In this document: piece after piece, positions 14,213 to 15,211 of the stretch
Numbering within the stretch: position 1 is the stretch's first letter
Layout: the number at the start of each line of letters is the position of its first letter
Virus record (IMG/VR): IMGVR_UViG_2671180283_000002
Coordinates: 1-18,130 of that record
From: a virus
Taxonomy: Duplodnaviria > Heunggongvirae > Uroviricota > Caudoviricetes
Reading direction: 5' to 3' (one strand)
Length of the DNA stretch: 18,130 bases
Notes under the pieces: generated by a model
What the model was told of the DNA's origin: nothing
The model's input: only the letters and a program-made list of their open reading frames with translations
The model's database searches: none
Translations under genes and position numbers: made by a program

Positions 14213-15211
14213 TTGGAAATCAGCACGGCGGTTATTCATTCCGAAGAAGATGCTTTGCGTTTTGTTGAGATGTACATTGCTGGGCAAGATCTTCCTGATG
14301 GAATATCATTTGAAGGGTGGCCTAACTTAACCTTCCGTCTTACTGGTGACAAATTTCATGGCAGTTTGACTCCTTCTGTCATGAAGGGTTTTGTTGAAAT
14401 GCAGGCCCAAATAAACCGAGCTTATGCATTGTTAAAGTACGGAGTTCCTGACCCAAGAAAGCTTTCAAAAGAAGAGAAGGAAGCTATCGAAATTCAGGTG
14501 AATGTTGAGAATGGCTCGTCCTTGATAGAAGTTAATATGGATGGGTTCATGGGTGAGGTTATACAAACTGCGGTGAGTAAAGTGGGCCCTCAAGAGATCG
14601 TTATTACAGTTTTAGGGGTCGCTCTTATATGGGGCGGCGTCGTCCTATTCAAAAAATATCTAGAAGACCGCAAAGAGATTCGCATGGCAGAAGTAAAAAG
14701 CGAGTCTGAGCGTGAACACCTTGCGACCATGCGCTTCATGTCTGAGCAGGAAACAAAACGAAGTGAATTATTGACTCAGATTATTAGCGAAAAACCCAAG
14801 CTAGACAACATGGAAAGACTTGCTCATGACGCAAAAACCGACATAGTTAAATCATTTGTCAAGGCTGATACAGCTCAGATTGATGGCGTTGTATTGGATG
14901 CAGATCTATCCAAAACCCTCACTACAAATGCAAGGCGGAAATCAATGGAGATCCGCCTTGATGGAAATTATCGCATTGAAAAGGTTGACTCCACTGATCC
15001 AGAGAGCTTCAAAGTGCAAGTGAGAAATGTTGACTCCGATCTAAGAATATCGTGCATAGTACAAGATGTTTTTCTCGACGCATCCGAGCATAAAAAAGCT
15101 CTTCAGCAAGCTGAGTGGGATAGAAAACCAGTTCATTTGTCAATCAACGCAAAAGAACTAGATGGTGAAATAAAGTCCGCGATAATACTTTATGTCAAAG
15201 AGATAACATAA
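14213..15211 (+). CDS. Unknown 332-aa protein with one central transmembrane helix, in the cI-to-pL slot that holds rexAB in lambda
   Basis: ORF from track starting at TTG 14213 (AGAGG 7 nt upstream; first ATG at 14270). Same strand as cI after a 70-bp AT-rich gap; followed by a terminator and OL/pL. One hydrophobic segment (IVITVLGVALIWGGVVLF) and a charged, helix-rich second half. No recognisable catalytic motif. Confidence 0.7.
   Translation: MEISTAVIHSEEDALRFVEMYIAGQDLPDGISFEGWPNLTFRLTGDKFHGSLTPSVMKGFVEMQAQINRAYALLKYGVPDPRKLSKEEKEAIEIQVNVENGSSLIEVNMDGFMGEVIQTAVSKVGPQEIVITVLGVALIWGGVVLFKKYLEDRKEIRMAEVKSESEREHLATMRFMSEQETKRSELLTQIISEKPKLDNMERLAHDAKTDIVKSFVKADTAQIDGVVLDADLSKTLTTNARRKSMEIRLDGNYRIEKVDSTDPESFKVQVRNVDSDLRISCIVQDVFLDASEHKKALQQAEWDRKPVHLSINAKELDGEIKSAIILYVKEIT

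Follow-up and report, generated by a model that had tools for sequence, protein, structure and literature searches.

We analysed a window of 18,130 nucleotides (IMG/VR virus record IMGVR_UViG_2671180283_000002, positions 1 to 18,130; by the window we mean this whole stretch), which is a portion of a lambdoid prophage, and focus here on the gene which lies between its cI-type repressor gene and its N antiterminator gene and encodes a 332-residue member of PHROG 6191, a protein family of function unknown. An earlier note on the same DNA had proposed this gene as an undescribed single-gene exclusion or abortive-infection (Abi) system occupying the position of lambda rexAB; its observation is confirmed by our analysis and its interpretation is partly supported. 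The gene follows cI directly and on the same strand after a gap of 70 nt, and is closed, just as that note had read it, by a terminator which precedes the left operator and promoter (OL/pL). The terminator hairpin begins 8 nt past the stop codon, consists of six all-GC pairs and folds at −12.1 kcal/mol (z −2.5). Beyond it, the pL-like promoter region aligns with Shiga toxin (Stx) and lambdoid phages, and in the Stx1 phage AP005153 three operators and a promoter are annotated at this place, just 5' of N. The order cI, PHROG 6191 gene, terminator, OL/pL and N is the geometry of the cI-rexA-rexB-OL/pL-N region of lambda (Table 1).

The cI open-reading frame (ORF) shares ~90% nucleotide identity with the cI of Stx and lambdoid phages; its true start is probably at 13447, which fits the 231-aa cI of sister phages (those phages with a cI ~90% identical to that of the window), or at 13486. 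The palindrome TAC-N5-GTA occurs at six sites in the window against 2.1 expected, three of the six in the right operator (OR) or OL, and no operator words common to OR and OL were found as exact 9- to 12-mers. A scan of the 70-nt spacer between cI and the PHROG 6191 gene returned no promoter-like or terminator-like match. As the cassette thus has no promoter of its own, it is probably transcribed together with cI in the lysogen from the repressor promoters pRM/pRE, in line with the co-transcription that had been expected from gene order.

The reading frame is a gene. A Shine-Dalgarno sequence, AGAGG, stands at 14201-14205, 7 nt 5' of the TTG start, and the first internal methionine is residue 20, which falls downstream of the nearly invariant E11, so the TTG at 14213 is the real start. 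Compared with a 98% identical copy (L018), the gene shows 60 synonymous and five non-synonymous differences (dN/dS 0.019) and is under strong purifying selection. In nine of 5426 complete E. coli genomes RefSeq holds the identical 999-bp coding sequence as hypothetical protein WP_000406300.1 (the one genome inspected has it in a lambdoid prophage, behind a gene for a LexA-family repressor), and the exact 332-aa protein is found on 609 contigs of E. coli, Klebsiella and other Enterobacteriaceae, labelled always as hypothetical. A TTG with GAGGA, GAGGG or AGAGG ~7 nt upstream recurs in 28 of 39 distinct N-termini of relatives, spanning subfamilies and including one only ~60% identical; conservation of so weak and rare a start across subfamilies suggests selection for low translation, and hence for low expression of the protein. 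The same rare start and the want of an annotated domain would be the grounds for calling the frame a chance ORF or a decaying remnant, an explanation already refuted and to which we give a negligible probability: besides the low dN/dS and the exact copies on many contigs, it has against it a ribosome-binding site at the correct spacing conserved across subfamilies, 1550 representative relatives of nearly uniform length (320-360 aa) and a confident predicted fold (predicted local distance difference test score, pLDDT, of 87).

Table 1. Features of the window around and within the PHROG 6191 gene, with positions counted from the first letter of the window
Feature	Position	Strand	Evidence or remarks
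nanS-p-like esterase gene	485-2335		DUF1737, SASA and DUF6645 domains
Q antiterminator gene	3872-4495		
O gene	11746-12684	-	ORF list / domain scan
cII gene	12717-13013	-	ORF list / domain scan
cro-like gene, divergent from cI	13155-13370	-	216-bp "putative cro" at the equivalent place in AP005153
OR region	between cro-like gene and cI		TAC-N5-GTA palindromes 13401-13411 and 13461-13471
cI-type repressor ORF (from first ATG)	13420-14142	+	HTH_3 2e-09, Peptidase_S24 9e-29
Spacer, cI to PHROG 6191 gene	14143-14212	+	70 nt, holds AGAGG
PHROG 6191 gene	14213-15211	+	999-bp coding sequence, 332 aa, TTG start; ORF list, family profile match, dN/dS
N-terminal acidic alpha/beta domain	14213-14587	+	residues 1-125 (model 1-121); net charge about −8 counted from sequence
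Single hydrophobic segment	14594-14650	+	residues 128-146, EIVITVLGVALIWGGVVLF; candidate transmembrane helix with small-residue face
Charged helical stalk	14651-14863	+	residues 147-217; AlphaFold2 helices 143-160, 164-171, 178-193 and 195-217
C-terminal OB-fold domain	14945-15208	+	residues 245-332; predicted model with five strands, 14-residue helix between strands 3 and 4
Intrinsic terminator closing the cassette	15219-15246	+	hairpin 15219-15236, then TTTTCTTT
pL-like promoter	15431-15459	+	TTGACT-17-TACTAT; operator-like palindrome 15445-15455 between hexamers
N antiterminator gene, far edge of slot	15708-16091	+	Pfam N_peptide 2e-15

Mosaicism of the cI-to-N slot, a hotspot that follows a lysogenic promoter of high activity and can contain RexAB or BstA, is already documented (PMC8585504). 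The position assigned to the gene by the earlier note stands. Spacer, gene and terminator together form a discrete, self-contained and mobile cassette of prophage cargo. Upstream of cassettes that are 98-100% identical stand regulator genes of at least three kinds. Among them are two S24 repressor clusters, whose cI-type ORFs were called at 233-240 aa and end 70 or 121 nt before the family gene, and a gene for a protein of 155 aa, itself uncharacterised. The 70-nt spacer is identical behind different cI alleles, and in the alignment of copies homology runs from the last ~30 nt of the upstream gene to immediately after the terminator. The sister phages carry other cargo in this slot or nothing: phage 2B8 has an NYN-domain protein between cI and OL, phage 2G7b a 283-aa hypothetical protein, the Stx1 phage a 173-aa ORF, and phage ev017 a pair of genes of which the second resembles the PADLOC candidate PDC-M24B (5e-10) and the first, weakly, PDC-M24A, whilst in phage Louie the slot is essentially empty. 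The gene is therefore dispensable to the phage and the slot is a site of swapping.

The protein matches PHROG 6191 over its full length (E 1.1e-137, residues 4-331 on profile positions 6-334 of 338). No Pfam, NCBIfam or PADLOC family matched it, and kinase, nuclease and NTPase families were among those not detected in these three libraries, in agreement with the earlier note, which had seen no such motif; a match to aRib at 17.9 bits was dismissed against a cut-off of 27. A search of PDB sequences with the family profile returned noise only (E about 0.6), and no family recurred when 145 divergent relatives were compared with Pfam and PADLOC at E ≤ 1. Weak matches of relatives to LapA_dom and DivIC were set aside, reflecting only the hydrophobic helix and a coiled-coil character. 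A word-indexed search found 122 clusters, all unnamed, in Enterobacterales, Pasteurellaceae, Pseudomonas, Oceanospirillaceae and Caballeronia, and an exhaustive profile search raised this to at least 1550 representatives (clusters at 50% identity) at E ≤ 1e-3, 599 of them at E ≤ 1e-30, nearly all 320-360 aa long and of one architecture. Members occur in prophages of E. coli, Salmonella, Klebsiella, Serratia, Yersinia, Pseudomonas, Pasteurellaceae and Moraxella; at least 93 members are present in IMG/VR, and a second enterobacterial subfamily occurs in 86 of 5426 E. coli genomes. Among deposited phage genomes only two, Moraxella phage Mcat17 and Pasteurella phage Pmp14, contain a detectable relative. 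Mean pairwise identity is 34-42% in every region of the protein and no domain is hypervariable, so a "sensor" domain cannot be identified by its variability. The product is a "hypothetical protein" everywhere and we found no paper on the family, which had also been reported as unrecognised; judged by these searches, PHROG 6191 is new to the literature, very widespread and without detectable relationship to any characterised family.

The AlphaFold2 model, built from a 50-sequence alignment (pLDDT 87.3, predicted template modelling score 0.69), reproduces the layout which the earlier note had drawn from the sequence: an alpha/beta domain at residues 1-121, helices at 126-217 and a beta-rich domain at 245-330, with the hydrophobic segment at 128-146. 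Structure prediction was among the checks that note had proposed, and it gives the C-terminal domain, which had not been recognised before, as a predicted oligonucleotide/oligosaccharide-binding (OB) fold. For the N-terminal domain no fold match was found. The sole hydrophobic stretch is held by two helices at residues 126-160, followed by further helices at 164-217; in this stalk L150 is invariant and R153, E180 and R183 are nearly so. The hydrophobic segment itself has a Kyte-Doolittle value of 2.33, a simple sum of −2.17 kcal/mol on the Hessa scale and a small-residue face made of G135, A137, G141 and G142. Each of 253 relatives has one hydrophobic segment at the same position (median +0.24 kcal/mol, 37% below zero), the next-best segment having a median insertion free energy of +11.6 kcal/mol. 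Lysine and arginine in the 15-residue flanks are enriched on its C-terminal side (4.1 versus 1.9 on the N-terminal side; C-terminal above N-terminal in 208 of the 253). Were the segment to span the membrane, the positive-inside rule would therefore leave the acidic N-terminal domain outside and keep the stalk, with its basic flank, and the OB-fold cytoplasmic; such anchoring in the inner membrane appears the most likely topology. A latent helix which inserts only conditionally may be an alternative to a fixed topology with the N-terminus outside.

To place the family in its genomic contexts, genes were called and neighbours classified at 90 loci, giving 143 clusters of neighbours (individual loci carry L numbers). 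In lambdoid phages the gene stands on the same strand directly after a repressor with helix-turn-helix (HTH) and S24 domains, of which eight distinct clusters occur among the neighbours, and in Moraxella phage Mcat17 and loci L071, L074 and L087 a 228-250-aa gene lies upstream in the position of the repressor. A Pasteurellaceae prophage (L104, 6367-11186) has cI, a 283-aa KilA-N protein and the family gene in succession, and a DUF4145 protein a little further on. This KilA-N protein has an unusually wide spread: Staphylococcus phage EW and satellite phages of Streptococcus encode relatives 45-54% identical to it. Its identification as BstA was not supported, as tblastn gave no match to BTP1. 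The P2-like L108 encodes a C-like HTH repressor, one further gene and then the family gene, the last converging on gpD. A second slot, antisense between Q and the holin/lysis genes, is used in 46 of the 90 loci by the commonest enterobacterial subfamily and also in L102 and L109; the Pectobacterium and Pantoea relatives with this arrangement are only 40-58% identical. Here the gene converges on Q, with stop codons 5-23 bp apart, and lies antisense to late transcription; in L028 (5676-7005) a terminator-like hairpin of the late strand at 5792-5780, just beyond the family gene, would fit insertion of the cassette between Q and pR'/tR'. Beside the family gene of L109, a Pantoea prophage (9617-12000), a 485-aa ATPase of the AAA_15 type and its partner of 308 aa are encoded just 5' of Q and resemble a two-gene module of defence type. 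In four Mu-like phages (L004, L090, L092 and L105) the gene is two to three genes downstream of a gene diverging from the transposase operon, and on the same strand as the lysis genes and upstream of them, directly before the holin in two. From gene order, the common denominator of these contexts is that they are places where temperate phages keep lysogeny-expressed cargo.

Known defence genes are found in some of these neighbourhoods. In Pasteurella phage Pmp14 (L003, 4668-7032) a complete type VI retron (RT_VI 2e-88, HTH_VI 2e-32) lies directly upstream of a distant family member; PD-T7-4 (1e-76) adjoins the family gene in a P22-like immI-type region; and a Type ISP restriction enzyme and a GmrSD fragment are near the gene in an Oceanospirillaceae island. 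A toxin/repressor pair is present a few kb upstream of the Pmp14 retron, and together these make up a small defence cluster inside the phage. The KilA-N and DUF4145 proteins of L104 are counted with the defence neighbours too. A few family copies are chromosomal or beside an insertion sequence, with no phage genes nearby.

Two further explanations draw on these contexts. The gene could serve the phage's own life cycle, in the timing of lysis or the maintenance or induction of lysogeny, as its place before the lysis genes of the Mu-like phages, the abutment of the largest enterobacterial subfamily on Q and the lysis module, and its presence in repressor operons would allow. We consider this improbable, since the gene is dispensable and replaceable among close phages, runs antisense to the late operon in lambdoid phages and also occurs in the restriction-enzyme island and at the chromosomal sites. 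Alternatively it could be a lysogenic-conversion factor unrelated to phages, such as lambda Bor or Lom, altering the envelope physiology, stress tolerance or host interactions of the bacterium. The moron-type placement antisense to late genes and beside the lysis cassette, the copies outside recognisable phages and the absence of a defence-family signature (PADLOC, protein and 145 relatives) all agree with such a role, as does a fold like that of periplasmic metal-binding (SilF/CusF) and glycan-binding OB domains. The family is, however, spread over very diverse hosts (from Enterobacterales, Pasteurellaceae and Moraxella to Pseudomonas, Oceanospirillaceae and Caballeronia) and several unrelated types of phage, which suggests a function common to conflicts between phage and host at large, not one tied to a single niche; retron VI, PD-T7-4 and Type ISP restriction-modification are among its neighbours, and the positive-inside pattern puts the OB-fold in the cytoplasm. 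A conversion factor seems to us unlikely.

The reading we prefer is that the protein protects the lysogen from superinfecting phages. The case for it is circumstantial, being drawn from placement in repressor operons in three types of phage, from the occasional defence neighbours and from analogy with membrane-anchored OB-fold Abi proteins, and we regard an anti-phage function of any kind as possible, with a chance falling a little short of even; that it acts specifically by abortive infection through a membrane effector is a tentative and rather doubtful proposal. Under that proposal the cassette would be read from the repressor promoters with cI in the lysogen and the conserved TTG start would keep the level of protein low. 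The single-helix protein would be anchored in the inner membrane with its stalk and OB-fold in the cytoplasm, where the OB-fold may bind a phage-derived ligand, whether DNA ends, replication intermediates or a phage protein. The helical stalk would relay this signal to the hydrophobic helix, whose small-residue face may favour helix-helix packing, and the helices, once oligomerised, would compromise the membrane and abort the infection. Taken furthest, the lysogeny operons of lambdoid, Mu-like and P2-like prophages may carry in PHROG 6191 a new, very widespread kind of anti-phage effector, made of a single protein and unrelated to known defence families, in which a cytoplasmic ring of OB domains like that of toxin B subunits senses the phage ligand and gates a pore of small-face helices, the N-terminal domain keeps the helix latent until infection and the weak TTG limits the toxic dose; this full scheme we hold to be speculative and unlikely.

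Several results weigh against an anti-phage membrane effector. None of the 5027 models of PADLOC-DB v2 matches the protein, its 145 relatives give scattered weak matches to unrelated PADLOC models, each in two members at most, and few of the 143 neighbour clusters match PADLOC strongly, so that known defence genes are a minority of the surroundings. The frequent adjacency to lysis cassettes and the chromosomal orphans leave other roles possible. The hydrophobic segment is marginal in many relatives, as the positive family median shows, and for the N-terminus to lie outside, a domain of 125 residues that has no signal peptide would have to pass through the membrane. This domain is also better modelled in the full-length protein (pLDDT ~79-95) than alone (57-88) and so may be packed onto the other parts of the chain, an arrangement hard to square with a place across the membrane. 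In structure the OB-fold comes closest to toxin B subunits and metal chaperones, not to single-stranded DNA-binding proteins (SSBs), and the last 90 residues have a net charge of about −1.6; the OB domain is thus not basic and nucleic-acid binding is not implied.

Protection could also be given without cell death, by superinfection exclusion (Sie) at the step of DNA entry, the inner-membrane protein blocking tape-measure or ejection proteins or host entry factors in the manner of HK97 gp15 or P22 SieA or, by location, of a SNIPE that lacked its nuclease. A lone hydrophobic helix flanked by domains that could act on either side of the membrane, the absence of a detected enzymatic domain (Pfam, PADLOC, NCBIfam) and placement in lysogeny operons would suit this, an OB-fold of the toxin-B/CusF type could be a protein- or glycan-binding module, and SNIPE is a precedent for a membrane-localised defence acting during genome injection (PMC13190303). 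Known Sie proteins, however, show no similarity to ours and no PADLOC model matches it; with 332 residues and three structured parts it is more elaborate than the typically small Sie proteins; and a dose limited by the conserved TTG would fit a toxic effector better than a passive blocker. Entry exclusion is in our judgement unlikely.

Other genes in the window also have the look of cargo. A 617-aa ORF at 6981-8834 (+) runs opposite to the surrounding nin-region genes at a GC content of ~33-34%, lower than the 45-55% of its surroundings. Neither Pfam nor PADLOC matched this ORF, which looks like another inserted cargo gene. A 252-aa ORF of low GC at 2877-3635 (-), likewise with no match in Pfam or PADLOC, lies between the Q antiterminator gene and the nanS-p-like esterase gene, where Stx phages carry stx. 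At 5915-6562 (-) a nin-region ORF with an HNH_3 domain and a weak AP2-domain match overlaps the start of the NinG gene and looks like a homing-endonuclease-like insertion.

The gene is a good candidate from a new family in a known hotspot, strong and cheap to test rather than a surprise. It gives the RexAB/BstA slot a third occupant, unrelated to both and itself a large family, in a place whose cargo shares a promoter that is among the most active in the lysogen. Should it prove anti-phage, a common component would be added to censuses of defence systems, where it is currently invisible because no PADLOC model detects PHROG 6191; it would be relevant to the prediction of host range for phage therapy in Enterobacteriaceae, and would offer a compact, single-chain model for the coupling of a membrane effector to a cytoplasmic sensor, a question unsettled for RexAB after decades. 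If it does something else, it is still an uncharacterised moron of comparatively high frequency in prophages, for which a confident model of the structure is at hand.

Among known OB-fold proteins (AB5-toxin B subunits, SilF/CusF, SSB, PriB and RPA) sequence identity to the C-terminal domain is 5-18%, and they differ from the protein of the window in that its OB domain belongs to a larger, membrane-type protein. A Foldseek search of viral models gave full-length alignments to three phage proteins, one of them DUF6575, at E about 1e-5 and with TM-scores of only 0.26-0.31. DUF6575 is reported as a domain of one experimentally validated PD defence system and is listed with those newly linked to defence (Vassallo et al. 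2022; PMC9519451). Pfam DUF6575 gave no match at E ≤ 1 in the window protein and 145 relatives, so the structural link is a lead unconfirmed by sequence; PD-T7-5 was considered as the PD system that carries DUF6575 and dropped, other papers describing it as PD-(D/E)XK or RmuC-like. Tab of a P. aeruginosa prophage was rejected as an analogue, having only 83 residues.

SNIPE is a constitutively membrane-localised single-protein defence which acts on siphoviruses during injection (PMC13190303; PMC9519451). Like SNIPE (PD-lambda-1, a membrane-bound DUF4041 nuclease), the window protein is a single protein of membrane type with a coiled-coil or helical middle and a C-terminal effector or binding domain; unlike it, with SNIPE ending in a nuclease, it has no nuclease or PADLOC match. 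PdpSau of S. aureus prophages and AbiP of Lactococcus are single-gene Abi proteins that combine a membrane anchor with a cytoplasmic OB-fold or nucleic-acid-binding domain, and PdpSau, which is prophage-borne and lies beside lysis genes, causes membrane depolarisation and abortive infection (PMC10127798). The likeness is one of parts list only, an OB-fold plus a hydrophobic helix (here a candidate anchor) in a single protein, as the anchor of PdpSau and AbiP is at the extreme N-terminus whereas the helix here is internal, at 128-146, after a 125-residue acidic domain and before a stalk of ~70 residues. Homology to PdpSau was rejected with hhalign against phage 53 ORF016 (278 aa; probability 0.14%, 12 columns aligned), the comparison being made with PdpSau.

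BstA of the Salmonella prophage BTP1 is encoded by one gene, which follows cI and ends in a rho-independent terminator of its own, and represents a prophage Abi family found across Proteobacteria (PMC8585504). The window gene is also downstream of a repressor and has its own terminator; its product differs in having no KilA-N match, and in possessing one hydrophobic helix and an OB-fold. With lambda RexAB it shares the slot after cI, on the same strand and with a terminator before OL/pL and N, the presumed expression from the repressor promoters and the proposed logic of a sensor joined to a membrane effector. In lambda two genes fill this slot and RexB is a multi-pass membrane protein, whereas here a single ORF with one hydrophobic segment fills it, and neither PADLOC, Pfam nor NCBIfam, which are assumed here to include Rex models, gave a match that would indicate homology to RexA or RexB. 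RexB has been reported to be an ion channel (PMC8585504). In outline, the mechanism proposed here would amount to RexA and RexB condensed into a single chain, and would likewise resemble those of AbiP and PdpSau. The gene is of an already known kind, a cargo presumably expressed in the lysogen from the cI-to-N hotspot and plausibly a single-gene, membrane-linked exclusion or Abi protein, whilst the protein family to which it belongs is new to the literature.

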